In this document: piece by piece, positions 14,520-29,701 of the stretch
How the letters are laid out: every line of letters begins with the position of its first letter
How positions within the stretch are numbered: position 1 is the first letter of the stretch
NCBI GenBank assembly: GCA_045612385.1
Contig: JAZKYZ010000064.1
Span: 196-64,195, forward strand
Direction: 5' to 3'
Source of the DNA: Eubacteriales bacterium
GTDB lineage: Bacteria; Bacillota; Clostridia; Oscillospirales; CAG-272
Length of the DNA: 64,000 nt
Translations under genes and position numbers: made by a program
The notes under the pieces: model-generated
What the model was told of the DNA's origin: nothing
Database searches by the model: none
The model's input: only the letters and a program-made list of their open reading frames with translations

Positions 14520-14807
14520 TTATTGATTCAAGGGTTTGTTCAAAAATCCATTGAGAGCACGAGTGCCACACTTGGTGTTGCGCCACGTCATCTCGCCTGT
14601 GATTTCACAGACAAAGCATCTTGCGCTGCTTGAAATATTCGAGCGAAAATGCTGGGTCAACTCGTCTGGGTCAAGATAGGAGTCAATCATAAAAGCAGTG
14701 CCGTCAATCATACAGAAATTGACTTGATATTGCAGGTAATCATAAAATCTCTCCATCACGGAGCCACTTGCTTCGACAAGAACAAGATATCTTTTTCTAA
14801 AACGCAT
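14520..14807 (-). CDS. Small hypothetical protein, paralog of 14826-15086
   Basis: AGGAGGG RBS. Alignable to the upstream 86-aa protein (Y-hydrophobic strand, W...N near the C-terminus). Confidence 0.6.
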   Translation of the reverse strand: MRFRKRYLVLVEASGSVMERFYDYLQYQVNFCMIDGTAFMIDSYLDPDELTQHFRSNISSSARCFVCEITGEMTWRNTKCGTRALNGFLNKPLNQ

Positions 14808-14825
14808 TGCTCTTCCCTCCTAAAA

Positions 14826-15086
14826 TCAAAGATTGTTAAAGAGATAATCGCTGTGGTTTAAGTTGTTCCACGCAGCGTTTCTGCGAAGAGCCACAACGAT
14901 TACTCTGCCATTGAGCCCAACAAGAGGATTGATTTTGTCATAAATCTGGTTGGCGCTAAGGTCGGTTTTGATAAACCATTGTTCATCAAGGATGTGCGCC
15001 CAGCAAGGGAAAGACTTGATTACTTTTTCTACAAGCACACGTTGAAGCGCATTGCCGGCGCGATAAATGATAGCGTAGGACTGCAT
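14826..15086 (-). CDS. Small hypothetical protein, paralog of 14520-14807
   Basis: AAGGAG RBS 8 nt upstream of the ATG. 86 aa. Confidence 0.6.
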   Translation of the reverse strand: MQSYAIIYRAGNALQRVLVEKVIKSFPCWAHILDEQWFIKTDLSANQIYDKINPLVGLNGRVIVVALRRNAAWNNLNHSDYLFNNL

Positions 15087-15330
15087 ATTTTTTCTCCTTT
15101 TAAAAAACTCAAAATTCTAACGGATGACAAACGAAATATCTTTCGCAAGAGCGAAACCAATCGTTTTTCGCCCTTTGTAACATTATAACACCTCTCTTAT
15201 GAAAAATCAAGAGTTATCTTTCTTTATGAGGGGGAGAGGGGGCAAATCTTCTGAAAAATACAGAAAAAAGCAGAAAATATCCTTCCTGAGCGCTATATTT
15301 ATCAATAAAGTAATTTGAAGGAGAAAAACC

Positions 15331-15567
15331 ATGATTTACAAAGCAATACCTGGTCCTAAGAAAATCCAAATCGAAAACGACAACCTTAGTATGGCAACCG
15401 ATGCCTTTGCTAACCTCGTCAACACAAATGCTGTGGATGGCTGGAAATTCTATTCTCTGGAAACGATTACCACTACCGAAACCATCAAAACCGGTTGCGC
15501 ATTCAACCAGCAGGTTAGTGTAGTTGAACACAACATTTATATGCTTATTTTCTGCAAGGAAGAGTAA
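15331..15567 (+). CDS. Small DUF4177-like protein
   Basis: AAGGAG RBS. MIYKAIPGPKK...AVDGWKFYSLE...YMLIFCKEE matches the DUF4177 pattern as I recall it. Confidence 0.5.
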   Translation: MIYKAIPGPKKIQIENDNLSMATDAFANLVNTNAVDGWKFYSLETITTTETIKTGCAFNQQVSVVEHNIYMLIFCKEE

Positions 15568-15569
15568 TT

Positions 15570-16055
15570 TTGAAGGAAGAATCTACAACGGAATCCAGTT
15601 TTGATCACCTTCCTACACAGGAAGAATTGCTCGCATCTTACACACGAACCAAAAAAGCAGACCCGACCTCGACGGAATATGAACGAATCCTCGTTCGTCC
15701 CTCGTTACATATCATAAGGACGTGTCTTTTCGTTTTGGCAAGCGTCGCTGTCGCAGTCTTGCTTGCAACGCTCACTTATCTGCTATGGGAAAGTGCGCTT
15801 AATGCAATTTTGGTCGGTGTCGCTGTTCTCATCCTTTTGTTGCTTGTATTTTTAAAGCGCATCCTGATATGGCTGATTTTGGCATATCAGCGATTTGCTC
15901 CCGATAAGGTACGGAATCGTTGCCGATATGAGCCCTCCTGCTCACAATACACGATTCTGTCGATCAAAAAATACGGAGTCATCAAAGGATTTACAAAAGG
16001 TCTGAAACGCTGGCACAGTTGTAAGCCACCGAACGGTGGATTCGACCTGCCTTAA
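15570..16055 (+). CDS. yidD: YidD-family membrane protein insertion efficiency factor with a long N-terminal TM extension
   Basis: C-terminal RCRYEPSCSQYTILSIKKYGVIKG...RWHSCKP is the YidD signature. TTG start 3 nt after the upstream stop, with an AAGGAAGAG RBS. Confidence 0.7.
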   Translation: MKEESTTESSFDHLPTQEELLASYTRTKKADPTSTEYERILVRPSLHIIRTCLFVLASVAVAVLLATLTYLLWESALNAILVGVAVLILLLLVFLKRILIWLILAYQRFAPDKVRNRCRYEPSCSQYTILSIKKYGVIKGFTKGLKRWHSCKPPNGGFDLP

Positions 16056-16059
16056 TTAA

Positions 16060-16103
16060 GAAACAAGAAAACCAAGTCTCTCGGCTTGGTTTTCTTGTTT
16101 TTC
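16060..16103 (+). terminator. Intrinsic terminator after yidD-like gene
   Basis: AACAAGAAAACCAAG...CTTGGTTTTCTTGTT followed by TTTTC. Confidence 0.75.
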
Positions 16104-16376
16104 AGGTTTTCAAACATAAGAAACTGGTAAGTCATTATGTTAACAAAACGAACCCTTTACTTATCAATGTGCTCCATAGTGCATTTTACACAGTCGAAAT
16201 TTTCTAGTGCGTCCACACCGAAAGGGCTGATGATATACCAGTAAAAAAGTGCAACTTGTAAAAGGGTACTTCGGTCAGGCGATGATTAACAAGGCGCACG
16301 CCAACGGCAGCATTTGTAACGATTAGATTTTAAAACTGTCCTTTAGAGTATCTCCCTATAGGATACGACTTTTTTC

Positions 16377-16653
16377 GTGCGGACCATGTCGCTCGTTAAG
16401 AAAACAGTTGATAACTGTTTTTAGAGCGAAGACCGAGAACTATGTTCGAGGTCTGTCCCGTCGGAGCCCAAGCAAAAAGAGCACCACAAGGGTGTTTTTT
16501 AGTGCGGACGATGTCGCTCGTTAAGAAAACAGTTGATAACTGTTTTTAGTGCGAAGACCGAAGACTATGTATGAGGTCTGTCCCGTCGGAGCCCAAGCAA
16601 AAAGAGCACCACAAGGGTGCTCTTTAGTGCTTGGTGCGGACGACGGGACTTGA
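16377..16653. repeat. Two tandem 125-bp units plus a terminal 22-nt tRNA-Leu 3' fragment
   Basis: Units start at 16377 and 16502 with GTGCGGAC(C/G)ATG (tRNA-Leu 3'-end-like). Each ends with the AAAAAGAGCACC-ACAA-GGGTG hairpin. A third start at 16632 is the perfect tRNA 3' end copy. Confidence 0.9.
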
Positions 16654-16752
16654 TTCTCCTCGCGAACTGCGCTCGTCGGTCAGTCGCGGCTCTGACAGTC
16701 CACCGGACTGTCATTCACTACCGCTCCCCTTCAAGTCCCCTCATCCAAACCA

Positions 16753-16785
16753 CACAAAAACACCCTCCGAAAATCGGAGGGTGTT
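16753..16785 (-). terminator. Intrinsic terminator downstream of the recombinase gene
   Basis: Minus strand reads ACACCCTCCG-ATTTT-CGGAGGGTGT followed by TTTTTGTG. Confidence 0.7.
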
Positions 16786-17059
16786 TCGCGTGGTGCACCA
16801 CTTTAAGCCTAAATTGAACCAAGTGTTCAGTTTGGGCTTTTTGCTTTTCTTATGGCTTTTTCGACGTCGGTGCTGACGGCGGTTTATGCCGCGAAAGACT
16901 CTTGACACGAGTAAGGGGGTGTGGTAGGCTTCATGCCATAGGCAAACAAACAGCCCCTCGGGGCTGGGTGGTTGGCTTCTTTGCCTTGCACCCACACTCC
17001 CGAGAGGCTCGTGTCAAGAGTACCGTGGAATAAATAGCCGTTAGCTTAATGTATGTGAG

Positions 17060-18538
17060 TTACCCCACATACATTTCAAGCTCCATTGTTTGTGCGGTGT
17101 ATATGCTAATAAAGCCTTTATAAAAAGAAAAGCCCTGACTTTCGTCAGAGCCGTTCTTAATGGGGCTATTGATGTAAATTTCAATTCTGTCATTATAAAG
17201 CACTAATTCTTTGATGAAAAGACTAACTATCATAGTAGCTTCAAGCATTAATGCTTCTTCGTAGTATTCACGGATAATGCTTTCGGGTACTTTTACAGCT
17301 GTTTTACTCTTTTCTATAAGCAATTCACGCTCTAACGCCTCTTGCTGTTCTTCAAGCTCGTGTAAGCGTTTTTTAGTGGTCTTTGAAACTATGCCTTGTT
17401 CAATAGCAGCCATAAGGTTATCTAAAGCAGTATCTATCTTGGATTTTTCTCTTGCAATTGTTTTCACTTTGGGATTATCGGTACAGTATTTATCTTGCAA
17501 TTTGAGCAGATTTTTCACGATTCCATTAAGCGTTTGCGGTTTAGAAAATTCTCGTGTAATAGCCGTTACGATTGCTTCTTCCAAGGCTTCTTTTGAGTGA
17601 ATTGCTTGCTCACAGCCGTTGTGATATACCTTTCTTCCGAGGCATTTATAATAACGCTTTATCTCTCCGTTTCTTGCCGTTCCCGTGTCGGAGCTGATAG
17701 GATGTCCGCAATATCCGCATCTCATTTTATGGCGAAATAGATATACAGTCTTTATGCTACGTTTACCGCCCTCGTTTTCTTTAGACTTTGCTCGTACAGC
17801 TTCAAATGTATGTGTAGGCACGATTTGAGGATACATATTATCTACTCTCTCGTCACCGTGGTAGTAAACACCGGAGTATTTCTTGTTTTTAAGTATGCTG
17901 TATATGGTATTTTTAGCGAATGGCTTTCCCTTGTAAAGTACGCCCTTTGCCGTTAATGCCTTTATAATATCCTTTACAAATACGCCGATAGAGTATTGTT
18001 CAAATATGAACCTTACTGTTTCGGCTTTTTCTTCGTCTATAAGTATTTTCTTATCGACAACCTTATATCCGTATGGCAATCCACCGCCTTGGTAATGTCC
18101 TTTAGCTCTATTCTCTCGCATACCTCTTTTTACTTTTTGAGATAAGTCGGCGGAGTAATATTGATTCATACCTTCAAGTAAACTTTCAAGTATAATTCCT
18201 TCGGGCGTATCGGGGATATTTTCCATAGCGGACAATACCTTTACGCCATTTTTCTTTAGCGTATTCTTATGTATGGTAGCTTCGTATTTGTTTCTTGAAA
18301 ATCTGTCGAGCTTATACACAAGAACGTATGTCCATTCTTTTCTTGCGCTATCTCTTATCATACGCTGAAAATCTGGGCGCATATCATTCGTTCCCGTCAT
18401 AGCTCTGTCGATGTACTTTGCAAGAATAAGAATATCTTTAGCTCTTGCAAATTCCTCGCATACTCGAAGCTGACCTTCGATAGATTGTTCAGTTTGGCTG
18501 TCACTTGAATAACGTGCATAGATTACTGCTGTTTTCAT
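17060..18538 (-). CDS. Large serine recombinase
   Basis: MKTAVIYARYSSDSQ... (resolvase catalytic Ser region), recombinase domain, zinc-ribbon CGYCGHPISS...YYKC and a coiled-coil C-terminus. AAAGGAG RBS precedes ATG 18538. Confidence 0.9.
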   Translation of the reverse strand: MKTAVIYARYSSDSQTEQSIEGQLRVCEEFARAKDILILAKYIDRAMTGTNDMRPDFQRMIRDSARKEWTYVLVYKLDRFSRNKYEATIHKNTLKKNGVKVLSAMENIPDTPEGIILESLLEGMNQYYSADLSQKVKRGMRENRAKGHYQGGGLPYGYKVVDKKILIDEEKAETVRFIFEQYSIGVFVKDIIKALTAKGVLYKGKPFAKNTIYSILKNKKYSGVYYHGDERVDNMYPQIVPTHTFEAVRAKSKENEGGKRSIKTVYLFRHKMRCGYCGHPISSDTGTARNGEIKRYYKCLGRKVYHNGCEQAIHSKEALEEAIVTAITREFSKPQTLNGIVKNLLKLQDKYCTDNPKVKTIAREKSKIDTALDNLMAAIEQGIVSKTTKKRLHELEEQQEALERELLIEKSKTAVKVPESIIREYYEEALMLEATMIVSLFIKELVLYNDRIEIYINSPIKNGSDESQGFSFYKGFISIYTAQTMELEMYVG

Positions 18539-18749
18539 TTTGGAATCTCCTTTTTTCTTTAGAAATTTGTCTTTCGGCAGGAGCGACCAAAACGGAAATG
18601 AAGGCGAGGTCAAGGAAATAGGCGAAAATATTGTATTTTAGGCGGCTATATAAAAATCATCAGCAATATTTTCACCCCTTTACCTCGGCGGCGTTTTCGT
18701 TTAAGCTCCACAACCGGCGAAAGATAAATTGTTTTTATGTCTACAGTTA

Positions 18750-18896
18750 TTACGGCGTATCTTCTTTGTTATCATCGTGAAAGAGATCTATAATGCGAGT
18801 AAGTAATGCGTTATAAAAAGCGTTCTGCTCGGCTTCGCTAAACTGCTTAATATCCATCTCATCGCATATAGTAATTTCGGGCGTTTCGTTTCTCAC
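18750..18896 (-). CDS. Possible 48-aa acidic protein upstream of the recombinase
   Basis: GGAGG, 7 nt, GTG. Translates VRNETPEITICDEMDIKQFSEAEQNAFYNALLTRIIDLFHDDNKEDTP. Not in the ORF track (under 60 aa). Confidence 0.35.
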   Translation of the reverse strand: MRNETPEITICDEMDIKQFSEAEQNAFYNALLTRIIDLFHDDNKEDTP

Positions 18897-19490
18897 TCGC
18901 TAACCTCCTTTTTGCTTGGTATAAAGAGGTTAACATATAAATCCCATCAAATCCACCTCTCAAGCTTTCTGCTTTTGCGATGCTACGGCACAGTTTTTAT
19001 TCGTCATTTTACGAGGGTGATTATTGAACTTACAGCGGTGGACAGTTTTAACCATTAGAGCCAAAACCATTGAAAATTATACTGAATTTTTATATACTGA
19101 TTATGACGTTTCGGATAACAACAACTTATTTGACAAGCAAATAAAAAAGCCCCTCTTTCGAGGAGCAAAAAACATAAAACCGTGACGGAGCAAACGCAAA
19201 AAGTTTAATCCACCAATTTAGCCGCCGACGGATAAAGCGGAGGTCTGTGCAAGCGGCTTAGCGCACAGCTCCGCTTCCGTTCGGCTTTGGTGGATTTCTT
19301 TTCTTGTCCGTTTGTTTTGCGCGAGGGCGTGTGCTTGTCTGGCGGCGCGAAGCGACGCCACTTGTATCAAGACAAGCACACGCCCTGCGCTCACGCTTAA
19401 ATCGTAGACTTATTTTTGTGGACGGATTTGATTCATATCATACCGATGAATTAGAGCATAAAAGCAATAGCGACGAGCCTAAGCTCGCCG

Positions 19491-19772
19491 CTAAAAACAG
19501 ATGTTTGCCGAATTTACGGAGTTGTTTTCTGTACATTGCTGCACAGGGAGGCAAAAGTTCACCTCCTGGGCATAATCACCATTCTGTGAATATTCGACAG
19601 TTGCAGGTGTGTGGCTGTCGACTTGGGGTGTATAGGCAATTATAGCAAGAGCCCATATTGTTATAAATGCGCTGAGGAAAATGGCCACAATTTTTAATAC
19701 TCGTCTTGTGGTTGATTTTTTTGAACGATCAATTTTTCTTTTTTTCGCCTTGTTAGGTTTGAAACTAAACAA
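19491..19772 (-). CDS. Doubtful small membrane-anchored protein
   Basis: Basic N-terminus plus one TM, but a TTG start without a clear RBS, embedded in structured non-coding sequence. Confidence 0.25.
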   Translation of the reverse strand: MFSFKPNKAKKRKIDRSKKSTTRRVLKIVAIFLSAFITIWALAIIAYTPQVDSHTPATVEYSQNGDYAQEVNFCLPVQQCTENNSVNSANICF

Positions 19773-20016
19773 TGCACCAACTAACTGTTTTATTAGCTCG
19801 CCGTATAACTAGGTCGCCGCAGCCTATAAGGACCGAGGGAGGATTGTATTATTCATACCTTCTCAACTTTGTTACACCGCTTGCGCGGAGGCTACGTCAT
19901 TTCTGCGTAGCTCTTGCGGTCACCCGCAAGTTCAGACTGTGCCTTCATCCGCATGGGATGCTCCGTGTCCAGTCGTTACACCTTCCCTAAAAGGGCTTGG
20001 CTCGGCATTTTCTGCT

Positions 20017-20655
20017 TTATATTATATATATATCTTCTTGCTGATATTCGATGTTTTTATTATACCCATATCTATTATAGTCGATAGACCAAATACATCC
20101 ATCTTCATCAGTACATTGTATAGAAAGATGCCTTGGGGAAGTTCCCTTATCTCCGCTCATATAAAAACATTGCAGTTCATTTTCAAAGTTATAGTAATTA
20201 TCGCTATATTTGCAATCCAAATTAATTTTGACCTGTTGTTTCGAAGTCAACAGTGCACATACGGCATCACCGCAAAAATGAATATCTGTTAAATCTCGAT
20301 TTCCAACATTAGTTATCTTGATTATATAGGCTTGTTCCTCATAATCCAAAACTTCTATACTCAAAACAACTTTAGGTCTTATTTCATACTTTCTACGCTC
20401 TTCTTCATTTTTTTGTTGCCAGAAATACAATAAGAAAGATGAAAATATTCCTAACGCAACTCCATAGTATGAAAGAGTGTCGATTTCAAGCGTTTTTTGA
20501 AACAATTCGGATTTTTCAGCCAAAAGACAAAATATGAAAGGCATTGATAAAATTACAACCACACAAAAAATTGTGAATAATGTTCTATAATTTCCAATAA
20601 TCCATTTTTTAATTTTCGGTACGATGCTAAACTTGTTTTTCGTTTCTTTTTTCAT
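20017..20655 (-). CDS. Hypothetical 2-TM protein with a soluble C-terminal domain
   Basis: 212 aa with two hydrophobic helices followed by a beta-rich Cys-containing domain. No family recognised. Confidence 0.55.
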   Translation of the reverse strand: MKKETKNKFSIVPKIKKWIIGNYRTLFTIFCVVVILSMPFIFCLLAEKSELFQKTLEIDTLSYYGVALGIFSSFLLYFWQQKNEEERRKYEIRPKVVLSIEVLDYEEQAYIIKITNVGNRDLTDIHFCGDAVCALLTSKQQVKINLDCKYSDNYYNFENELQCFYMSGDKGTSPRHLSIQCTDEDGCIWSIDYNRYGYNKNIEYQQEDIYII

Positions 20656-20705
20656 AATTAATATACCATGATGGAGCCGCCACGAGGGCGGCTCTGTTTT
20701 GTTGT

Positions 20706-23700
20706 TTAAAGTTTAATCCACATAGCTGGAACAACACCCTCGCCATCACTTATGGACGAATATCCATTATCATCAACAGTACCTGTGTTATAAACTACCA
20801 TTACAGAGTTTATATAATTTTTATCAGGTGAGCGAAGCCACCAATCTCCGTATCCATAACTTGATTCAGCCGTAGAAATCCAAGTACCAATTGCACGAGC
20901 GTAATCGGTAGTCTGCATTTTTCGGTTTGTATTACTTGCTAAGTCGTAATCGCTCTTTATTGCTTCTCGATAAGATAGTAGAAATACCTTGTCCTCGGTA
21001 TTTTCACAAGCATATGAATTATTGGAACTTTCTGTACTAGCGGCACTATTGTCGACAGTGGTGACTTGTATCAATTCTTTTTGAATTTCTCCAAAAGCTT
21101 TGTTATAAAATTCGTTATTAAGCCACTGCCTAACATCACTATCTTTATAATTGTTGTTTTTATCTTCATCGTAAGAATGGTCGTCTATAATACTGTCGCA
21201 AAGTATAAATGCTGATTCTCCATTTTCCGATAGAACTCTCCAACGAATTGGCTCTACCTTGAAATAATACGTTTCGCCTGCTGTTACCGCTTCATCATTA
21301 GAGAATTTATAGCCCAAGTTATACTGAGTAGAAACTATTTTAGCATAGTAAAAACCATCACTTCCCATATAATATCCTCGTTCATCTTTGGTGTTTGTTA
21401 TTTGAACACCGTCGGATTTAATGGTTTGAGGATATTCCCCGAAATATATGTATTCTCCAACTCTATAATAGCCACGCCAATAATACACCTCTAAAACCAA
21501 ACTTCCGTCACCGCTGATTTTACCGCTTAATTTACTAATGCCATTGTTAACATTTAATCCGTCAAATGTTTTTGATATTACTTGTGCCGTTGCGTCAGTT
21601 GCTCCAAAAAGATACTGCGTATCTACAAGCTCATATCCTGTTCTATCATTGGTTTGCTTGTAGTGCTTAACAATATAAGGAGTATCTTCATCTGCACTCC
21701 ACTTAGCAGTGTAAGTGACATTCTTTTCTGCATTGAAAGTGAAGGTCAGCGTATCGCAAACTTTAGTATCGCCTTCATACCAACCAATGAAGGTATATCC
21801 GGGATTTGAAGAAGCAACAAGTTTTACTTCACTTCCGATTTCATAATTGCCCCCATCGCTAACAAATCCTGCTTTGGGATTTTCCGTGGCGGTTGATATC
21901 GAGCAAGTATTAACAGCTATCCACATAGAAGGAATGACACCTATACACTCGGTGGTTGGTTTGCCCGATCCATCATAAATGTTTCCATTGCTGTATAGCA
22001 TTAGGACAAGTTCGCAGCTTGCGCCCGATGCTCCGGGAGAACTAGTCCATGATGCGTAGGCATAGTTGGTTCCCGACGAAAGTTCAAGTCCAATAGCTTT
22101 CGAAAAATCAGTAGCCATCCAATTATCTCTATCGGAATTATTTGGGAAATATTTGCGCAGATCCGAAGCTGAAATCAAAGACACTTTATTCTGATTTACA
22201 ATTTGAACGATCTGTTGTTGTAAAGATGTAAATGTCGTATTGAAAAATTCTTGTGTTAACCAACTGCGTATCTCGCTTGTTTCGTAGTTGTTATTATACT
22301 TACTATCATCGAATCTTCGACTATCTATTACACTATCGCACAGAATAAAGGCATTGCCATCTTTTTCGGAAAGAATTCTCCATCTAATCGGTTCGGCCTT
22401 GAAATAGTAGATATTGCCTTCTACAATATATTCCCCGGAAGAAAATTGATAATATTTGTCATAGCGAGGACCTGCCACAATTTTCGCATAATAATATCCG
22501 TCCGACCCAAGATAATATCCACGATTATCTACAGTTGTCGTTATTGTGACATAATCCGCCTTTAATGACTGAGGATATTCTCCGAAGTATATATATTGTC
22601 CTTCGCGATAGTATAGATCCAAGGTATAATAAACGTTGAGTACCAAAGTGCCATCACCATTAATATTGCCGGTCAATACACTCTTTTCAGCGTTGAAGAG
22701 ATATCCGTCTAATTCATCAGCAACAAATGTAGCTAAAGTATCGGTTGTTCCAAGTAAAGTTATTGAGTTAAACAATACCGAATTATATCCCGCCTTAGTC
22801 ATATTATCTTTATAGAAATTGACAGTATACGGAGTATCTTCATCCGCGCTCCACTTAGCAGTATAAGTAACGTTTTTTTCTGCATTGAAAGTGAAGGTCA
22901 GCGTGTCACATACTTTAGTATCACCCTCATACCAACCAATGAAGGTGTAACCGGGATTTGAAGAAGCAACAAGGCTTACAGAATTTTCGTAAGCATATTT
23001 GCCGCCCGAGGTTACAGTACCAGCCTTTTTGTTTTCTACGGAAGAGTTAATTGTATAAACGTCTCTCGTGTAGTAGACTTTGAGAACAAGTTTGCCATTA
23101 CCTACTATATTGCCACTAATTACGCTATTTGTATTTGTGAATGTAAAGTGTGCATACTCAGAGATAACAGCATTTGCGGTGGTATCAGTTATTCCTTCGA
23201 GAACGACAGTATCCACCTTGTCATATCCTGTTTTATTCTTATTTTCAAGATAATACTCAACAGTGAACTTCGTGTCATCGTTGGCAGACCATTTTGCCGT
23301 AAGAGTAACCGCATTTTCAACGGTAAACTTGTAGCTTTCAGTTTCGCAAACAAGAGAGTTTCCTGCATACCAACCGAGGAAGGTGTAGCCGGGGTTTGTG
23401 GTAGCAGTTACGGTGATTGTTTTGCCGTAACGATAAGCGCTTCCGCTTGTTACACTACCAGCCTTTGCATTCATCGCACGAGTGGTAACGGTATAACTAC
23501 TTCTCGTATAGTAAATTTTAAGGACTGCATCGCCTTCACCGTCGATATTTCCGCTTGCATTACTGATTGCGGCATAATAGGTGAAATGGGGATAGCTGTT
23601 TATCGTTGCGGTTGCGAGAGCATCTGTTGTTCCCATAAGAATATCGCTGTGGATAAGGTAGTAATCGTTGTTATCGATATTCTGATGATAGTACTCTACG

Positions 23701-26201
23701 GTATAGAAGGTATCCTCGTTTGCCGACCACTTTGCAACAAGAGAAATGTTTCTCGTAGGCATAAACGTATATGCAAGGTCTCCGCTGACGAGAGCGTTTC
23801 CTTCATACCATCCGAGCCAAGTATATCCGGCTTTAACGGTTGCGGTTACAGTGATTTCGTTACCATAAACTTTGGTAGCTCCCGACGTAACAGAACCGCC
23901 CTTTGTGTTTTCCGCAGAGGTTGTTACGGTGTAGCTGTTTCTGTCATAGTAAACCTTGAGAACGAGAGTTCCTTCGCCATCAATATTTCCGCTTGTAGTA
24001 CTCTTTGACGAATTGAACTTAAAGTGTTCAAAGGTCTTGGGACTTACCGATGCGGTTGTATCGGTTGTGCCTGCAAGATTTTCGGTTTCCAAGTTAAGTA
24101 TATCATAGCCGTTTTTGTTGGAATTTTCGAAGTAATATTCTACCTTGTAGGGAGTATTTGTGTTTGCCTTGAAGTTAGCAACGAAGCTAAGGTTCTCGGT
24201 TCTACCCAAAATCTTTACGTTAAGGGTAGGCTCTGTAACTCCCTCGTAAGTCCAACCAAGGAAGGTGTATCCTATCTTTGTAGGATTGATAAGCGTAAAT
24301 TCGCTTTCGATGGTATAGGTTGTGGGGTTCTTACCGTCAACTGTACCGCCGTTAAGATTATACTCGATATCGTAAAGAACGAGATCCCAAACGGCAACTA
24401 AGTTCATATCGGTGGTAAGATTATATTTACCGCCTGTTACAAAGTTTGTTCCGTCAGACCAGCCCGTAAAGGCGTGTCCTGCGTATTCGGGCGTGGGAAG
24501 AATTATTTCTGCATCATAATCAATCGGGATTTCGGTTTTGTCCACAGTTCCGCCAATAGCATCAAGATAAATCTTGAAGGAATCAGCTTTCCAATTTGCG
24601 GTAAAGGAAAGCGCACCTATAGAGTCGTTAATGCTGACGTTAAGAGTGGGCTCGGTAACTCCATCATAAGTCCAGCCGAGGAAGGTATAACCCGTTCTTG
24701 TAGGATTGATAAGCATAAATTCACTCTCGATGGTGTAAGTCGTTGGATTTGTTCCATCTACAATACCACCGTTAAGCGTATAGCCGATATCATAGCTTAC
24801 AGCATCCCATTTTGCAACAAGATTTACGTTCTTGCTTGTTTTCCAAGCACCGCTTACGTAAGGAGTTGTATCCTCATACCAACCTGCAAAGCTATATCCC
24901 GTCTTTGTGGGGGTAGGGAGCGTAATATTTGCATCATAGGTAGCAGTTTCATTTTCATAGCTTTCGTTGCCACCGTTGGTGTTAAAGGTTACGGTATAGG
25001 TGTTAGCCACCCAATTTGCAACGTAGCTTCTGTTGCCAATGCTTCCACTTGCGATCTCAAGAGCAAGCGTAGGTTTGTTAACGTATGTTCCCGTCCAACC
25101 GAGGAAGGTGTAACCGGTCTTTTCGGGAGTTGAAAGCGTAATGTTTTCGCTTACAAAATTGTATGTTGTGGGATTGGCGGTAGAGAGTGTGCCACCGTCA
25201 AGGTCGTATTCGATTTCATAGTTAATAAGCGACCATTTTGCTACAAGGGTAACGTCGGAATCGCCCTTCCAGATACCGTTTCCAAAAAGGTCGTTGCCAA
25301 GGTACCAGCCGTCAAAACTATATCCCGTGCGAGTAGGTATTTCAAGCGTATAGTTAATATCATAGACAACGCCTGTTTCCTCGTGTGCAACAGTACCGCC
25401 GTTTACATCGTAGGTAATTACGTACTCGTTTGCGAGCCAAATGGCAGAAATTGTTTCGTTTTTAGTGATAGGCGCAGTAAAATCATAACTCCAGCCCGAA
25501 AGAGTATATCCCTTTTTATAGGTATCTGGAGCTGACACAAGAGAGCCTTCTTCAATAATCACGGCTTCTGCAGTAGTGCCACCGTCTGTGTCAAACATTA
25601 CAGTGTACATAGGTCTACGACGGATATTCAACTTATACATCTCGGATTGACCGTTCTCAGCCGTAACGAGAGCGTAGTAAACGTTGTCACCGATTTCCAA
25701 AGGAGCAACCTTGCTGGAAATAGTAGTGTTTCCGTAAATATCGCTCGTTAAAGTCCAAGAGCTTTTAGAGTTTATAGTTACCTTTGTACCGAGCGAAAAT
25801 GCCTCGGTTGAGTTAGAAACCGTTATGGAATACTCGGTGTCGGATATCTTAGTAAATCCATCAAACTCAGCCTCAACGCCTTGAACCGATTCCGAACTCG
25901 TCCATTTAGCATAAACGGACATATTTTCGGAGAGCGGAGCATCAAGGAGAGAATTGGCGGTGAAGGGCTTGTTCCAAACGTCCTTATCCCAATACCAACC
26001 GTCGAAGACGTGCCCTTCTTTAATAGGATCATTCGGTATCTTGATGGTTTCCTTTCCGCTTGTGTTAACGGTTGCGTAAATTTCACCGTCAACAACAAAG
26101 TCAACCTTGAATTCGACTTTTCCGCAAGATGCAAGTCCGAGCGTTATGCCAAGGACGAGTGTCAAGCAAAAAAGAGCAGACAGTAGCTTTTTCATAAGCA
26201 A
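20706..26201 (-). CDS. Giant surface lipoprotein (1831 aa) with many Listeria-Bacteroides repeats and two GEYPQ...EPIRWR (DUF6273-like) domains
   Basis: Signal peptide plus lipobox LASCGK. More than 15 copies of the GY(T/S)FxGWY...W repeat. Two YIYFGEYPQ...EPIRWR(I/V)LS modules. Confidence 0.9.
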   Translation of the reverse strand: MLMKKLLSALFCLTLVLGITLGLASCGKVEFKVDFVVDGEIYATVNTSGKETIKIPNDPIKEGHVFDGWYWDKDVWNKPFTANSLLDAPLSENMSVYAKWTSSESVQGVEAEFDGFTKISDTEYSITVSNSTEAFSLGTKVTINSKSSWTLTSDIYGNTTISSKVAPLEIGDNVYYALVTAENGQSEMYKLNIRRRPMYTVMFDTDGGTTAEAVIIEEGSLVSAPDTYKKGYTLSGWSYDFTAPITKNETISAIWLANEYVITYDVNGGTVAHEETGVVYDINYTLEIPTRTGYSFDGWYLGNDLFGNGIWKGDSDVTLVAKWSLINYEIEYDLDGGTLSTANPTTYNFVSENITLSTPEKTGYTFLGWTGTYVNKPTLALEIASGSIGNRSYVANWVANTYTVTFNTNGGNESYENETATYDANITLPTPTKTGYSFAGWYEDTTPYVSGAWKTSKNVNLVAKWDAVSYDIGYTLNGGIVDGTNPTTYTIESEFMLINPTRTGYTFLGWTYDGVTEPTLNVSINDSIGALSFTANWKADSFKIYLDAIGGTVDKTEIPIDYDAEIILPTPEYAGHAFTGWSDGTNFVTGGKYNLTTDMNLVAVWDLVLYDIEYNLNGGTVDGKNPTTYTIESEFTLINPTKIGYTFLGWTYEGVTEPTLNVKILGRTENLSFVANFKANTNTPYKVEYYFENSNKNGYDILNLETENLAGTTDTTASVSPKTFEHFKFNSSKSTTSGNIDGEGTLVLKVYYDRNSYTVTTSAENTKGGSVTSGATKVYGNEITVTATVKAGYTWLGWYEGNALVSGDLAYTFMPTRNISLVAKWSANEDTFYTVEYYHQNIDNNDYYLIHSDILMGTTDALATATINSYPHFTYYAAISNASGNIDGEGDAVLKIYYTRSSYTVTTRAMNAKAGSVTSGSAYRYGKTITVTATTNPGYTFLGWYAGNSLVCETESYKFTVENAVTLTAKWSANDDTKFTVEYYLENKNKTGYDKVDTVVLEGITDTTANAVISEYAHFTFTNTNSVISGNIVGNGKLVLKVYYTRDVYTINSSVENKKAGTVTSGGKYAYENSVSLVASSNPGYTFIGWYEGDTKVCDTLTFTFNAEKNVTYTAKWSADEDTPYTVNFYKDNMTKAGYNSVLFNSITLLGTTDTLATFVADELDGYLFNAEKSVLTGNINGDGTLVLNVYYTLDLYYREGQYIYFGEYPQSLKADYVTITTTVDNRGYYLGSDGYYYAKIVAGPRYDKYYQFSSGEYIVEGNIYYFKAEPIRWRILSEKDGNAFILCDSVIDSRRFDDSKYNNNYETSEIRSWLTQEFFNTTFTSLQQQIVQIVNQNKVSLISASDLRKYFPNNSDRDNWMATDFSKAIGLELSSGTNYAYASWTSSPGASGASCELVLMLYSNGNIYDGSGKPTTECIGVIPSMWIAVNTCSISTATENPKAGFVSDGGNYEIGSEVKLVASSNPGYTFIGWYEGDTKVCDTLTFTFNAEKNVTYTAKWSADEDTPYIVKHYKQTNDRTGYELVDTQYLFGATDATAQVISKTFDGLNVNNGISKLSGKISGDGSLVLEVYYWRGYYRVGEYIYFGEYPQTIKSDGVQITNTKDERGYYMGSDGFYYAKIVSTQYNLGYKFSNDEAVTAGETYYFKVEPIRWRVLSENGESAFILCDSIIDDHSYDEDKNNNYKDSDVRQWLNNEFYNKAFGEIQKELIQVTTVDNSAASTESSNNSYACENTEDKVFLLSYREAIKSDYDLASNTNRKMQTTDYARAIGTWISTAESSYGYGDWWLRSPDKNYINSVMVVYNTGTVDDNGYSSISDGEGVVPAMWIKL

Positions 26202-26210
26202 TACCTCCTA

Positions 26211-26246
26211 AAAATACAAAAAGTGCGCCCGCAAAGCGAGCGCACC
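26211..26246 (-). terminator. Leader terminator (possible attenuator) just upstream of the giant gene RBS
   Basis: Minus strand reads GTGCGC-TCGCTTTGCGG-GCGCAC followed by TTTTTGTATTTTT, then AGGAGG and the ATG. Confidence 0.6.
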
Positions 26247-26375
26247 CCATTATGTACCTCACCTTGCCGCGACGCAATTTTCATAATATCTTAACTCAAG
26301 TATATGAAAAGGTGGGAGTACTAAAATGGCATAGTACACCCTTGAGTTAAGAATATTAAATTACGTCGCACTCTA

Positions 26376-26404
26376 ATTATAGCACACTTTTACAAAAAAG
26401 TAAA
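26376..26404 (-). promoter_or_regulatory. Sigma-A-type promoter for the giant surface protein gene
   Basis: Minus strand reads TTTACT, 17 nt, TATAAT. Confidence 0.55.
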
Positions 26405-26475
26405 TATTTTCAGGCGATTTATTACGCGCAAAAAAAGCGCAAGTCAAAACCTTTCGGTTCAACTTACGCTCATAG

Positions 26476-26560
26476 TGGTGCGGACGACGGGACTTGAACC
26501 CACATGAATTGCTTCACTGGAACCTGAAACCAGCGCGTCTGCCAATTCCGCCACGTCCGC
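26476..26560 (-). tRNA. tRNA-Leu (anticodon CAG)
   Basis: Acceptor GCGGACG/CGTCCGC, anticodon loop TTCAGGT, long variable arm TGAA-GCAA-TTCA, T-loop TTCAAGT, encoded CCA. Confidence 0.85.
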
Positions 26561-26770
26561 ATATTAAATTATGTCTTGTTTAATTTTGATTCGTCAAGAC
26601 CCTCGAATTGGAAGCCACGCTTCCAGCGCTGTCTGCAGTACGTACTCGCGAGCGAGTAGTACACAAGAATGCTTCTCATTCTTGCTTCGCCTACGGCTCG
26701 TCCGCCACGTCCGCATATTAAATTTTGTCTTGCTTCGCCTACGGCTCATTTGCCACGTCCACATTGACCT
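26561..26770. repeat. Partial duplications of the tRNA-Leu 5' end plus its upstream leader
   Basis: CCACGTCCGCATATTAAATT(A/T)TGTCTTG at 26551-26578 and 26705-26732. A degenerate third copy CCACGTCCAC at 26753-26762. GCTTCGCCTACGGCTC occurs twice. Confidence 0.85.
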
Positions 26771-26774
26771 ATAT

Positions 26775-26803
26775 ATTTTAGCATAACAAAATTGGTTTGT
26801 CAA
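26775..26803 (-). promoter_or_regulatory. Consensus sigma-A promoter upstream of the tRNA-Leu leader repeats
   Basis: Minus strand reads TTGACA, 17 nt, TAAAAT. Confidence 0.65.
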
Positions 26804-26888
26804 GTCTTTTTTCTGGGTTTTTAAAAATTTAGGGAATTGGGGCCATTTTTAACAAAAGAGGCTGCCAAGACAGGGTAGTCTTTTTTAA

Positions 26889-27086
26889 GAAAGGAAACAG
26901 AAGATTTCACAAGAGGTCTTGAGTGGGCTTGCCGATATTGGTCGCATGCATCTGAGTGCGATTGAGCGAGGAGAGAGAAAACCGACACTGGAAACGCTCT
27001 ATCGCATTAGTTGCGCGCTGGAAATACGGATGAGCGATATTATGTTGGAAATAGAAAGACGGCTGGGAGAGCTGGAAAAAACATAA
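26889..27086 (+). pseudogene. 5'-truncated XRE-family HTH regulator remnant
   Basis: ERKQKISQEVLSGLADIGRMHLSAIERGERKPTLETLYRISCALEI... is an HTH_3-like core. A TAA lies immediately upstream, with no start codon or first helix. Confidence 0.6.
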
Positions 27087-27182
27087 AATAGCCCTTGCTT
27101 TTTTCTTCGTAGTATGTTAAAATGAAGGCATCCGGTATGTCAGAACCAAGTCAAGTGATATCGACAAAAACAGGGGGCTTTT

Positions 27183-27689
27183 ATGGAAATTTTCGATTTG
27201 TATAATGAAAAACGAGAGCTTGCAGGGAAAACACACATACGAGGAGAGATCATTCCTGCGGGATATTATCACCTTGTGGTACACGTGTGGCTCAGGTGTC
27301 CCGACGGTCGCTATCTCTTGTCTAAGAGGGCTGCTTCACGCCCGACCTATCCCTTGATGTGGGAGTGTGTCGGTGGCTCGGTTGTGGCAGGAGAAAACTC
27401 CTATGAAGGAGCCGTGCGCGAAGTGCTTGAGGAGGTCGGAATTGACCTTTGTGGCAGAAAAGGCGAAGTTTTGTTTACGAAAACGCGTGATATCATTAAC
27501 GGAGTTCCCTTTCGTGACATTATGGATGTCTGGCGCTTCGACCTAATGGAAGGCGAAGAATTTGACCTTCAAAGGGCAAGCACCGACGAGGTCGCAGAGT
27601 GCCGATATATGACGAAGGAAGAAATCCAAGCCTTATATGACAGTGGCGACCTTGTACCAACGCTTGAATATATTTTTGATTATATTTGA
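27183..27689 (+). CDS. NUDIX hydrolase
   Basis: Nudix box GGSVVAGENSYEGAVREVLEEVGI. Confidence 0.85.
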   Translation: MEIFDLYNEKRELAGKTHIRGEIIPAGYYHLVVHVWLRCPDGRYLLSKRAASRPTYPLMWECVGGSVVAGENSYEGAVREVLEEVGIDLCGRKGEVLFTKTRDIINGVPFRDIMDVWRFDLMEGEEFDLQRASTDEVAECRYMTKEEIQALYDSGDLVPTLEYIFDYI

Positions 27690-27796
27690 GTTTTATAATG
27701 CAAAAACAGACCATCATACCCGAGAGGGGAGATGGTCTGTTTTCTTATTGCTTCGCCAATATCAAGTCGAAACGGAACTCGTATAGAGAGTGAAGT

Positions 27797-29701
27797 TCAT
27801 ATTGCATCAGGCAATGTCACTTCAATGTGATAGGAGGAAGTGCGAACAACAATGTGATACTCTCTGCCTTCATAGGTAGCCCTTGCGATGATGTATTGAA
27901 GGACGTACGTGCCGTTTGTGGTGCGAGAGAGATGGATGTCATAGGAGATATCGCCATCAAATTCGTCGTGTGGTCTTGTGAGGTGGACAACAATCCAAGA
28001 ACGGTAGATATCCTCTTCCACATCGATATCCCCCACGAAGTGGCTATCGAAAATGTAATGCAAAAAGTGTGTCGCTTCGCTGTTATCGAAGGTCCACCAT
28101 TTAAACGAACGATCCCCCTCGTCAATGAGGTTCAGGTCCTTATCGTAGAGGTTTTTCGTCGTATTTGAAACGTAGAAATCGGGTTTGTAGGTTTCAAAAT
28201 CATCATTTTCTGTGGCTTTTAAGCCATTGTCATAATTTTCATTATAGACGGCGACAATGTTCTCCGAACTGTCATAGACATACAAGGAGGATGTTCCATT
28301 GAAGGTTTCCGTCATCTTGAAATCGTGGTCGTGAAGGGATTGATTCACTCCGTTATAGTTGTTCATCAACTGATCGAAGTCAATACCGTATAGGACATTT
28401 TCACTGTGGGTGTAGCCCTTCAGCATATCGTTATTATCGAAAAGCGCTTCGATACCTGTGCCCTCATAACAGGGAGTATAAATCAAGGTATGCTGGTTCT
28501 TCTCATCAACAAAGAGGTCACACCTGACGCTCGCAAGGGAAACGAGGTTCATATCCTTATCGGTATTGTAGGTATAACTCAAACGATAATGTGGCGCATT
28601 TTTATCGTAGGAACTATCGTAATCGCTGTCATACTGAATGACGTATGTACGCTCGCTCTTGTTTTTCTGGAACTTATGCGCCTCTTTTACCTTGTCTTTG
28701 CTCCACGTGTAATAGGACGAAAACTCAGGAAGCTCAATGGACGAATAGTGGAAGGGGCCACTCTCTCTTGTGGCAGGATGAAGATACATCCACTCATAGT
28801 CGAAGCCACCGATATTGTTGAGTTTACTTACCGTGTCGCTTCCCTTCAAGGTGGTGTAAAGGATATCAAACACTCTACCCGCTGACAGATTACGAAATTC
28901 TGCTCCGGTATCGTAATCTGCGTCATAGATGTAGGCGTAATCCTCTTGGATATGACTATCATATCCCGTGTGATACACCCATTCATAATAGGCGATATAA
29001 GAGGTGTTCTCAAAGTCTATGTCCGAGATATCCTTACCCTGCTGATACAGACGTTCGGCGTTGGCTGTTGCGCCCTTTCCTCCACTTCCACCGAAGGAAC
29101 CAAAGGAGCCGAAGGGACCGAGAAAGCCGACAGCGATCGAAACAATAATAATAAAGATACGTAACAAACCATAGAAAATCGCAGAGATACGAAGAATGCC
29201 AATCGACATAAGAAGGTCGACAACGGACATCAGCAGGAAATAAATCGGGAGGATGAGAACCACCCAACTCTCCATATTGGAGAAGGTGAGGGCATTAAAG
29301 TAAAGTCCGAAGATGATGCCGAAAATCAAGGTATTTTCGATAAAGCCACCCGTTTCCAAAGGGGTGAAGTGCAATTCGTAATCATCAAAATCTTCAAAAA
29401 GCGAATTCCACTTACGTTCTGCAGTGACGAAGGTATAGACATTCTCGTGGATTTTCGGGTTCATATATTCCGGTCCACGATAGAAAAGTTGCGTTAAGAG
29501 CGAGAGGGCAATGGGGAGCCAAAGCAGAGTTTGCCCATTTTCAACACCTCGAATATAGAAAACGGAAAAGATCGTTCCCACAGAAGAAAGAATAGCAAAA
29601 ATGGGCAACAGACGTGTGAGAGATACCAAAAATCCTGCAATGATATAAATAGCAACGGCGCATCCAAGCACCTTCAAGGCAAGAGGTAAGAGCATTTCCA
29701 T
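27797..29701 (-). CDS. Large hypothetical membrane protein (N-terminal multi-TM, Gly-rich linker, about 430-aa extracytoplasmic domain)
   Basis: 634 aa with about 7 hydrophobic helices, then GPFGSFGSFGGSGGKG, then a Tyr/Asp-rich soluble region. No family recognised. Confidence 0.6.
   Translation of the reverse strand: MEMLLPLALKVLGCAVAIYIIAGFLVSLTRLLPIFAILSSVGTIFSVFYIRGVENGQTLLWLPIALSLLTQLFYRGPEYMNPKIHENVYTFVTAERKWNSLFEDFDDYELHFTPLETGGFIENTLIFGIIFGLYFNALTFSNMESWVVLILPIYFLLMSVVDLLMSIGILRISAIFYGLLRIFIIIVSIAVGFLGPFGSFGSFGGSGGKGATANAERLYQQGKDISDIDFENTSYIAYYEWVYHTGYDSHIQEDYAYIYDADYDTGAEFRNLSAGRVFDILYTTLKGSDTVSKLNNIGGFDYEWMYLHPATRESGPFHYSSIELPEFSSYYTWSKDKVKEAHKFQKNKSERTYVIQYDSDYDSSYDKNAPHYRLSYTYNTDKDMNLVSLASVRCDLFVDEKNQHTLIYTPCYEGTGIEALFDNNDMLKGYTHSENVLYGIDFDQLMNNYNGVNQSLHDHDFKMTETFNGTSSLYVYDSSENIVAVYNENYDNGLKATENDDFETYKPDFYVSNTTKNLYDKDLNLIDEGDRSFKWWTFDNSEATHFLHYIFDSHFVGDIDVEEDIYRSWIVVHLTRPHDEFDGDISYDIHLSRTTNGTYVLQYIIARATYEGREYHIVVRTSSYHIEVTLPDAI

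Follow-up and report, generated by a model that had tools for sequence, protein, structure and literature searches.

The 3' end of a tRNA-Leu(CAG) gene (26476..26560, minus strand) adjoins an island that carries a large serine recombinase (LSR), a 48-aa ORF, a two-helix membrane protein and a very long surface lipoprotein, in a metagenome-assembled genome of 72 contigs (positions are those of the window, the whole stretch of 64,000 nucleotides that was analyzed). This island is a 9,685-bp LSR element (16797-26481) lying between the tRNA gene and the terminator of a ~130-nt structured, non-coding cassette, here called cassette E (16632-16787, minus strand). Two exact copies of a 22-mer, TGGTGCGGACGACGGGACTTGA, are present in the window (16632-16653 and 26476-26497; 0 expected by chance, 100 shuffles), the right copy being the 3' end of tRNA-Leu(CAG), CCA included, on the minus strand. 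A preliminary description of this DNA had reported a perfect 22-bp direct repeat ending in the tRNA, the same gene content (serine recombinase, 48-aa ORF, 2-TM protein and 1831-aa lipoprotein) and no phage or conjugation genes; both repeat copies were located exactly, the same genes were found, and the island has no phage or conjugation genes and no Rep gene.

The recombinase ORF (17060-18613, minus strand) encodes Resolvase, Recombinase and Zn_ribbon_recom domains, and its start is more probably at M27, giving a protein of 491 aa (17060-18535) like its 492-aa homologues. The catalytic domain (PF00239, E = 2.7e-27) contains the motif YARYSSDSQ, which could be aligned with the solved catalytic domains of TP901-1 and conjugative-transposon enzymes, the C-terminal part matches PF07508 (E = 1.6e-15) and PF13408 (E = 2e-10), and the match to the A118 C-terminal domain spans residues 152-329. 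The protein also matches the phrog_95 integrase (E = 6e-102) and the solved TP901-1, A118 and phiC31 integrases, while its best NCBIfam matches, CcrA and CcrB, fall far below the cut-offs. The gene is present as a single copy in the genome, and with all three domains and the catalytic motif in place the enzyme looks intact.

Directly after the recombinase stop codon lies a conserved structured region of ~175 nt (16865..17059, minus strand), for which 40 pairs are predicted, 16 of them with compensatory double changes (12 elements). This region is missing in some relatives and may be a single-strand origin or an RNA of the 3' UTR; the idea that it is a guide or 'bridge' RNA was considered and rejected, because the region is absent beside recombinases of 50-58% identity that are also found at tRNA ends. 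The 48-aa ORF (18750..18896, minus strand; motif ITHG..LSE.EQ.FY..LL.R) is conserved ahead of the recombinase gene in all related elements (tblastn, gene calls) and is a candidate regulator or putative directionality factor. Two GC-rich hairpins (19207..19390), a candidate replication-origin relic, are part of the conserved backbone (74-95% identity to L054, L056, L058 and L062) and have multi-copy matches. A cmscan search of positions 14000-28000 (E <= 1) gave no Rfam match for cassette E, the hairpins or the post-recombinase region, its only hits being the tRNA and two chance microRNA matches. The cargo consists of the 212-aa protein (20017..20655, minus strand), with two hydrophobic/transmembrane helices and no family match, and the surface lipoprotein of ~1830 aa (20706..26195, minus strand), with a lipobox (LASC) signal peptide, DUF6273, 10+ Flg_new repeats and also List_Bact repeats, whose start is probably the ATG at 26195.

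In the closest relatives (L053-L061), a Rep gene (PF23343) sits immediately ahead of the recombinase gene. Searches of the window with tblastn gave no match to a remnant of that gene, or of the tyrosine integrase that relative L062 carries inside its element; L062 has a like layout and is also without Rep. Since the backbone is otherwise common with that of the Rep-bearing relatives, the window's element is a Rep-less derivative or variant. The earlier picture of an integrated element that brings adhesin-type cargo to tRNA-Leu, depends on a large serine recombinase for its movement and has no phage or conjugation genes holds, but the word 'minimal' does not: the element is not minimal by design, its closest relatives having a rolling-circle Rep gene that is absent here. 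The further suggestion that the island is more AT-rich than its flanks stands weakly, with a G+C content of 0.405 against 0.443 +/- 0.030, at the 15th percentile among equal-sized windows of its own genome. In the GC and k-mer check that had been proposed, the tetranucleotide distance lay in the top 10% relative to the same genome, and the composition of the element is mildly atypical overall.

The element ends at 16796/16797 and 26481/26482, and identity between its two junctions is limited to (G)TGGTGC, 6-7 bp. The recombinase-proximal junction (16791..16800) is a palindrome, TGGTGCACCA, unique in the genome, in which TGGT and GC (16795-16796, the putative crossover dinucleotide) come from the host and everything from ACCA onward belongs to the element. 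Homology at the DNA level to five related elements breaks off at 16791/16795 and resumes at 26431/26432, and joining the flanks in silico recreates the E-terminator-tRNA layout of relatives. A complete relative, L056, is without a long repeat and has no tRNA-end copy at 14 or 22 nt.

At the recombinase end, the P' arm (16797..16848, plus strand) consists of ACCA, a hairpin (AAGCCTAAATTGAAC..GTTCAGTTTGGGCTT) and a T-run; its TTGAACC word begins 18 bp out from the crossover dinucleotide, and the arm is identical, over all ~67 nt shown, to the arm adjoining tRNA-Leu(GAG) in L053 and L054, which come from other samples. At the other end, the P arm (26432..26479, minus strand; on the tRNA strand ACCA CTATGAGCGTAAGTTGAACC..GGTTTTGACTTGCGC and a T7 run) now provides the last 4 nt of the tRNA, and its hairpin and T7 run would act as the tRNA terminator. 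Its homologues lie at the tRNA-distal end in L062 and beside non-tRNA DNA in G019. When aligned in silico around the GC, the P and P' arms match at 20/24 positions, yielding a pseudo-palindromic attP with GC as its symmetry centre; on the tRNA side the corresponding GC (26480-26481) is nt 71-72.

We defined orientation A as the recombinase gene beside the tRNA and orientation B, that of the window's element, as the recombinase gene far from it. The sequence common to both junctions reads GCACCA for orientation A and TGGTGC for orientation B, and the T-loop word of P' is displaced outward, relative to that of the tRNA arm, by exactly 5 bp in 31/33 junctions. The A118 integrase follows this rule, its zinc-ribbon motif being 5 bp closer to the centre in attB than it is in attP (PMC3783163). 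From this shared 5-bp offset and the symmetry of the sequences, we infer that cleavage would occur at the self-complementary GC of tRNA nt 71-72. The exact empty-site junction (40 nt of joined flanks) had no match in JGI metagenome contigs, and no conspecific empty site was found in the JGI contig search or by exact look-up of the flanking NUDIX protein, which is not on record; a tRNA-based search did find three contigs with unoccupied sites, all from related organisms.

A convergent tRNA gene lies 45-800 nt past the recombinase stop at 39/80 named homologue loci, and at about 18 further loci among those from the genus and from metagenomes. The tRNAs targeted across the recombinase clade are Leu, Arg, Lys, Ser, Glu, Gln, Thr, Asn, Ala and Met. 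With GC cores, 17 elements are in orientation A and 14 in B, compared to 22 and 1 with non-GC cores (17/80 homologue loci were outside this classification), and relatives with TC cores occur in essentially one orientation. On the recombinase tree A and B are interleaved, and near-identical sister pairs are oppositely oriented, as for P0005 (A) and P0006 (B), whose enzymes are 97% identical. Both orientations are found in nature because the GC crossover dinucleotide, which occurs in the Leu, Arg, Lys and Ser branches, is self-complementary. The central-dinucleotide rule was established by mutagenesis for Bxb1 and phiC31, and GC cores in both orientations are a natural confirmation of it.

The anatomy, the junctions and this comparative pattern are direct observations, and from them the following course of integration can be proposed. 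The element's own recombinase would have inserted the 9,685 bp between the E terminator and the tRNA, using an attB made up of the tRNA T-arm/acceptor strand, GC, ACCA and the trailer, and a near-symmetrical attP centred on TGGTGCACCA (hairpin - CTCATAG TGGT - GC - ACCA CTTTA - hairpin). The zinc-ribbon domain would recognize TTGAACC, the T-loop word, which in the tRNA arm is 5 bp closer to the centre than in either attP arm, and strands would be exchanged at the two bases that precede the last four of the tRNA (nt 71-72). As the crossover GC is self-complementary, a product would be possible in either orientation, and the tRNA gene would be restored in each case, since ACCA, a hairpin and a T-run are present in both arms. 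The expected excised-circle junction is ...GCTCATAGTGGTGCACCACTTTAAGCC... and the expected empty-site junction is ...GGAGGGTGTTTCGCGTGGTGCGGACGACGGG....

Orientation B could instead have arisen by inversion after integration, the element always entering as A and its recombinase later inverting it between the junction sites. An antiparallel attL x attR exchange at a self-complementary core would give exactly the B junctions, and the alternation of A and B among near-identical enzymes is predicted by either route. We regard this two-step route as rather unlikely, since attL x attR recombination without a directionality factor is not normal for serine integrases (PMC3783163) and synapsis of a symmetrical attP with attB already predicts both A and B; the sequence data themselves fit both routes.

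Entry by the element's own recombinase in either orientation leaves the present state of this copy to be considered. With Rep absent and the composition mildly atypical, the copy may be old and fixed, and at the extreme it would be an immobile relic, a Rep-less domesticated adhesin island with an inactive recombinase. The lack of a Rep gene or remnant, a composition near that of the host and the single copy in the genome would suit such a relic. It nevertheless seems somewhat improbable, given that the recombinase frame and its catalytic motif are intact, as are the short ORF upstream and the two att arms, that elements from other samples have an identical P' arm over the ~67 nt shown, and that the like layout of Rep-less L062 makes the copy look like a natural variant and not a product of decay. 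To judge by these intact parts, the copy may be active at present.

The long repeat has a separate source. Its left copy (16632..16653, minus strand) is a displaced tRNA-Leu 3' end that runs from the T-loop to CCA and serves as the 3' arm of cassette E. Between it and the E terminator hairpin (16757..16787, minus strand) lies the cassette body (16654..16756, minus strand), with a conserved core at 16673-16732 (GCGGTAGTGAATGA - hairpin - TCAGAGCCGC) and an inverted tRNA-end-like arm at 16731-16753. The core was found by covariance model R1 in 114/151 genomes of the genus. In relatives the E terminator is directly 3' of the tRNA-Leu gene, with E, terminator and tRNA contiguous in L012, L014, L018 and L020; E and its terminator directly follow tRNA-Leu, with no recombinase present, in L012, L014, L016-L021 and L083, where E is flanked by the 16-22-nt end of that same tRNA. 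E cassettes are arranged in a like manner behind Trp, Glu, Thr and Ala tRNA genes, and 14/17 cassettes in relatives are bracketed by the 3' end of their own tRNA. In the window's genome, an inverted copy of its own end follows 12/38 tRNAs and a direct copy follows 6/38. Next to E are two tandem 125-nt units (16370..16619, minus strand; family D5, 94% identity), older decayed cassettes that each have a degenerate tRNA-Leu 3'-end copy (GTGCGGAC(C/G)ATG), an inverted T-arm fragment and a terminator hairpin; units like this pair also adjoin tRNA-Leu in L022, L023 and L019.

Very probably, then, two unrelated events are stacked at the tRNA-Leu(CAG) 3' end. In the older, E with its own terminator would have come to lie directly behind the tRNA, ending in a copy of its last 22 nt, and in the later the LSR element would have entered at the GC. 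The preliminary description had rightly found a long tRNA repeat atypical for a large serine recombinase, and the 22-mer is traced here to the separate cassette E; the paradox exists because two layers, cassette and island, are stacked at one tRNA. Neither explanation offered for the repeat fits, the repeat being part of an independent ~130-nt cassette.

The first of these explanations makes the whole 9.8 kb between the 22-mers one tyrosine-integrase island that has lost its integrase, with the serine recombinase as cargo or a later passenger. Tyrosine integrases classically leave a tRNA repeat that extends from the T loop to CCA (PMC5357655), and L062 does have a tyrosine integrase gene within its element. 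We consider this history very unlikely: E with like repeat geometry but no island occurs in at least 9 relatives, recombinase elements exist without E or the long repeat (L056), homology among the elements stops at the TGGTGC junctions and not at the 22-mer, and the 140 nt beside the left repeat are the independent cassette E. No tyrosine integrase (PF00589) was detected in the island by Pfam on the tested ORFs or recognized among its genes, and there is no sign that a lost one placed the 9.8 kb. The second, that the serine recombinase attP itself carries the 22-bp tRNA-Leu segment, so that the circle junction would hold TCAAGTCCCGTCGTCCGCACCA, draws on the perfect repeat enclosing the recombinase gene and can be dismissed as extremely improbable, since the reconstructed attP has 6-7 bp in common with the tRNA (only GC and ACCA are common to both), the DNA beside the left copy is a genus-wide cassette and not element, and in G023 an element remnant meets E's repeat copy through a GCACCA junction.

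As to the origin of E, no integrase could be tied to the cassette, and several candidates were rejected. A tRNA or tmRNA pseudogene is at odds with negative ARAGORN and Rfam searches and a T stem unable to form; a miniature IS200/IS605 derivative does not agree with the end hairpins of the IS200-like element next to tRNA-Leu in L053, which are unrelated; and serine recombination, by reasoning, cannot duplicate the tRNA-side arm. Tentatively, the cassettes, E included, may be structured-RNA genes and not scars, with a closing helix that copies the local acceptor/T arm and NCCA and would allow processing by the tRNA machinery (RNase P, CCA enzyme). They might spread from tRNA to tRNA by a mechanism that tailors both arms, each adding a spare attachment site for tRNA-end serine recombinases.

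In the open-access text searched, no description was found of tRNA-gene serine integrases, natural palindromic cores or tRNA-trailing cassettes. The reviews and large catalogue searched treat tRNA 3' ends as tyrosine-integrase territory and describe serine integrases as inserting within genes, their orientation being fixed by a crossover pair that is not symmetrical. In gut Clostridia, a large clade of serine recombinases targets the last bases of many tRNA genes, with the T loop apparently serving as the zinc-ribbon motif. Either arm of the mirror-symmetrical attP restores the tRNA, and the GC-core branches of the clade occur both ways round. Its enzymes are compact, and their landing sites are highly conserved and present in many copies. 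In annotation, the ends of an island cannot be assumed to coincide with a long tRNA repeat around it; in these genomes, tiny cassettes stacked behind tRNA genes create such repeats.

Among known systems, the nearest analogue for cassette E is the tyrosine-integrase islands and CIMEs at tRNA 3' ends, which yield the same geometry of a T-loop-to-CCA repeat, a rebuilt tRNA and units stacked behind one tRNA. In contrast to these systems, E is ~130 nt long and non-coding; its core is folded and conserved, and the tRNA end is present in a further, inverted copy. It is found behind many different tRNAs, with arms that always match the local tRNA. SCC and SCCmec (Ccr) resemble the window's element in carrying variable cargo and in inserting at the extreme 3' end of a conserved housekeeping gene, which stays functional, but their target is rlmH and not a tRNA, and they have one or two Ccr genes. 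To our knowledge, neither a symmetrical attP nor insertion in either orientation has been described for SCC.

The phage-type serine integrases (Listeria A118/LI, TP901-1, phiC31 and Bxb1) share with the window's recombinase the three-domain protein, and with its element the short att sites, the pseudo-palindromic attP, the 5-bp zinc-ribbon shift and a 2-bp crossover that sets orientation. Unlike them, the window's element targets tRNA 3' ends, rebuilds the tRNA and is not a phage, and its family has a natural self-complementary GC core in the Leu, Arg, Lys and Ser branches. The phage-type serine integrases reviewed insert within genes or elsewhere, and the target is often disrupted (PMC5357655, PMC5704250); the main text of Durrant et al. 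2022 does not mention tRNA (PMC10083194). Integrative mobilizable elements (IMEs) of Clostridia and other Firmicutes, of Tn4451/Tn5397 type or with rolling-circle-type Rep/relaxases, are likewise small, with one serine recombinase at one end, and have very short junction identity, as does the window element's family (PMC5704250); a further likeness is the rolling-circle Rep (PF23343) beside the recombinase in close relatives, though not in the window's copy. Tn4451-type enzymes, however, have low site specificity, for GA dinucleotides, and streptococcal serine-integrase elements disrupt their target genes, whereas the specificity of the window's element is for tRNA ends.

The 22-mer TGGTGCGGACGACGGGACTTGA has exactly two copies, at 16632-16653 and 26476-26497 (chance expectation, none), the right one being the final 22 nt, with CCA, of a minus-strand tRNA-Leu(CAG) gene (26476-26560). 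The left copy forms the outer arm of cassette E, a ~130-nt structured non-coding cassette (16632-16787). A DNA search of 40 relatives showed 16632-16739 to be a conserved multi-copy sequence, with matches often at contig ends and often adjoining a tRNA-Leu gene. In nine fetched loci, read on the tRNA strand, tRNA-Leu (CAG or TAG) is followed by a terminator hairpin and then by the tRNA end briefly repeated in inverted form. Next come a conserved core (GCGGTAGTGAATGA - hairpin - TCAGAGCCGC), a hairpin that varies, and the last 16-22 nt of the locus's own tRNA as a direct repeat; a second terminator closes the unit, and no recombinase lies nearby. The repeat matches the local tRNA every time in the fetched loci (TGGTGCAGGTGACGGGATTTG twice in L014, TGGTACGGGCAACAGGACTTG twice in L016); E is also found behind Trp, Glu, Thr and Ala tRNA genes, and 14 of 17 E units carry the direct copy. 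Because E is flanked by local tRNA-end copies in relatives, also where no recombinase is present, the 22-bp repeat is the usual bracket of E and not, as the preliminary description had it, the boundary of a 9.8-kb island.

A covariance model finds the 60-nt core of E in 114 of 151 genus genomes (1-20 copies each), and Rfam holds no family resembling it. Of the 38 tRNAs in the window's own genome, 12 have their 3' end repeated in inverted form immediately past the terminator (reaching the 99th percentile of the null), six have an additional direct copy, and tandem cassettes, nearly identical and with other cores, occur behind tRNA-Val, Thr, Glu, Ser and Tyr. These non-coding, stacked cassettes of ~110-250 nt form a genus-wide family behind tRNA genes, built of terminator, inverted copy of the local tRNA 3' end, folded core, direct copy and further terminator (examples: window 16632-16787; fetched loci L010-L021, L063-L075 and L083; own contigs C4, C6, C33, C39, C47, C52, C61 and C67). 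At 16370-16619, two 125-nt units represent older cassettes of this kind in a decayed state. The closing stem of E, on the tRNA strand, has 23 G.U vs 8 A.C non-Watson-Crick pairs, and its hairpin co-varies; this pairing bias and covariation hint at E as an RNA, a DNA-level mechanism being also possible. At the contig end of locus L069 (G022:C7, about 3280-3371) are tandem ~39-nt units in which the left half of that core hairpin, GTGAATGACAGTCCGGTG, recurs, and this points to another repeat family on this motif.

The recombinase element itself spans 9,685 bp (16797-26481). The terminator of E (16757-16787) is followed by TTTCGCG TGGTGC / ACCACTTTAAGCC, with the junction at the slash, and the opposite end reads ...CGCTCATAG TGGTGC / GGACGACGGG. 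Close recombinase homologues (77-92% identity) were located on public contigs, and DNA homology of their elements with the window is confined to 16795-18724 (some 84% for the closest elements, 75% for L058, L060 and L062), 19219-19384 (hairpins) and 26432-26481, ending exactly at 16791/16795 and 26431/26432. Joining the window flanks yields ...GGAGGGTGTTTCGCG-TGGTGCGGACGACGGG..., the E-terminator-tRNA layout of relatives, and in metagenome contig L083 homology to 16685-16796 continues straight into the next TGGTGCGGACGACGGGACTT. Metagenome contigs provided unoccupied sites in related organisms only, with none found in a conspecific. In L056, a complete relative of 6 kb, the tRNA end is not found a second time at either 14 or 22 nt.

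Gene content between the 22-mer copies is as first described: a three-domain large serine recombinase (LSR; 17060-18535/18613), a 48-aa ORF, about 1.1 kb of hairpin-rich non-coding DNA, a two-helix 212-aa membrane protein and a lipoprotein of ~1830 aa with Flg_new repeats and DUF6273. The segment had also been called AT-rich; its GC is indeed below the genome mean, but only mildly so (0.405 vs 0.443 +/- 0.030; 15th percentile of equal windows of the 1.89-Mb, 72-contig genome), and its tetranucleotide distance is in the top 10%. The backbone order of the element family is P arm, cargo, two GC-rich hairpins, 46-49-aa ORF, Rep, recombinase gene, ~175-nt structured region and P' arm, P' being the attP half on the recombinase side and P that at the opposite end. 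The rolling-circle Rep (PF23343), present in most close relatives between the small ORF and the recombinase, is absent from L062 and, with no remnant, from the window, where the recombinase is intact and single-copy in its genome. Cargo comprises the lipoprotein and 2-TM protein in the window, a 717-aa protein in L056, and in L058 (1-8000; recombinase 78% identity) a defence-type gene set of SNF2 helicase, DUF4391, N6/N4 methyltransferase and ResIII-type restriction endonuclease. The 10.5-kb relative L062 (NCBI JAZUBT010000007.1, 1283-11808), at tRNA-Leu(CAG), carries a Flg_new protein and, just inside the P arm and additional to its serine recombinase, a 310-aa tyrosine integrase; a 14-nt tRNA-end copy lies 250 nt past its far junction.

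Directly after the recombinase stop codon, the ~175-nt region (16865-17059, minus strand) is predicted to form 40 pairs, of which 16 show compensatory double changes, and contains the invariant words TATTTATTCCAC / GCGGCATAAA. It is conserved in many related elements and missing from some tRNA-targeting relatives, and may act as a single-strand replication origin or a 3'-UTR RNA. The two GC-rich hairpins (19207-19390; 74-95% conserved in related elements, multi-copy in relatives) and a 165-bp palindrome at 18566-18730, in the interval from the 48-aa ORF to the recombinase gene, together probably make up an origin or operator region. At 26211-26404 the lipoprotein gene shows a promoter-like site (TTTACT-17-TATAAT) with a long leader, which contains a 100-nt hairpin and, right ahead of the ribosome-binding site, a terminator-like stem (26248-26220); these features suggest conditional read-through. 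Upstream of the tRNA-Leu gene (26561-26803), its first 10-14 nt, together with about 20 nt of its leader, recur in two extra copies, and 5' halves of tRNA-Leu(CAG) are repeated at the same position in L053, so the 5' side of the window tRNA-Leu is also a rearrangement hot spot.

In orientation A (L053/54, L058/60, L062), the recombinase C-terminal end faces tRNA-Leu (GAG, CAA or CAG) through ...acceptor strand-GCACCA / C(T/C)...AAGCCTAAATTGAACC-hairpin-T run. In orientation B (window, L056/57), the tRNA lies at the opposite end and the recombinase-side junction is old terminator-TGGTGC / ACCA.... From these and the far junction of L062 (...CGGAATGGTGC / ACCAAAAAAAG-terminator), the reconstructed attP is hairpin-...TGGT-GC-ACCA...-hairpin, whose centre is the 10-bp palindrome TGGTGCACCA, with one occurrence in the window's genome. 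Outward from GC, the arms match at 20 of 24 positions (ACCACTTTAAGCCTAAATTGAACC vs ACCACTATGAGCGTAAGTTGAACC), each followed by a hairpin and T-run. Either arm, joined to the tRNA, would thus restore ACCA and bring in a hairpin and T-run resembling a terminator. The stretch shared with the tRNA is GCACCA for orientation A and the complementary TGGTGC for B, central GC being the only attP part common to both.

With the Listeria A118 integrase, the distance from zinc-ribbon motif to central dinucleotide is 5 bp shorter in attB than in attP, and that dinucleotide alone decides orientation (PMC3783163, its references 43-44). We set the centre at the two bases preceding NCCA and sought a word shared by tRNA arm and P' arm in 33 orientation-A junctions; were the centre one base off, the shift would come out as 3 or 7. 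A T-loop word (TTGAACC, AATCGAAC, TCGAAC...) is shared in 31 of the 33 and lies exactly 5 bp further out in P' in all 31; for the window element, TTGAACC begins at +13 on the tRNA side and at +18 in each attP arm. This constant shift places the putative crossover at tRNA nt 71-72, a pair that is GC in Leu, Arg, Lys(CTT), Ser and Thr, TC in Glu, CA in Gln and Asn, and CC in Ala. The other GCACCA-ending tRNAs of the window's genome are unoccupied by the element. In genome G023 the same GCACCA junction links an element remnant with the repeat copy carried by an E-like cassette, so cassettes are also spare attachment sites.

Among 80 homologue loci (53-92% identity) from gut Clostridia MAGs, e.g. 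Christensenellaceae, Borkfalkiaceae and Ca. Coproplasma, 39 are in orientation A, and in 15 the recombinase gene is followed by a B-type junction (12 with TGGTGCACCA, two with TGGCGCGCCA, one with TGGCTCACCA); 17 ambiguous and nine too short loci stand outside these counts. Six B loci have a tRNA upstream on the recombinase strand: tRNA-Arg(ACG) 5.4-8.9 kb away in four, and an array ending in tRNA-Lys(CTT) about 3.6 kb away in two. Self-complementary cores number 17 A vs 14 B and other cores 22 A vs 1 B (Fisher p = 0.0015, relatives not being independent), the sole exception, L091, carrying the TC core reversed in its attP. In a maximum-likelihood tree of 54 recombinases, A/B mixing within GC-core clades equals that of shuffled labels, well-supported branches force at least 9 switches, and the Glu (TC) clade is all orientation A. 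Near-identical sisters of opposite orientation are L098/L099, L131/L133, L124/L123, L140/L139, L094/L111, L101/L104 and window/L087; recombinases P0005 (A, tRNA-Leu GAG) and P0006 (B, tRNA-Leu CAG) share 97% identity. Orientation B may come from integration itself or from subsequent inversion, the sequence fitting either.

Neither a natural self-complementary core nor cassettes behind tRNA genes turned up in our search of the open-access literature, and tRNA is absent from the main text of the Durrant et al. 2022 catalogue (PMC10083194). In reviews of integrative elements of Firmicutes, tRNA 3' ends are attributed to tyrosine integrases, and serine-integrase elements are described as inserting within genes (PMC5357655, PMC5704250), whereas the window element sits at a tRNA 3' end.
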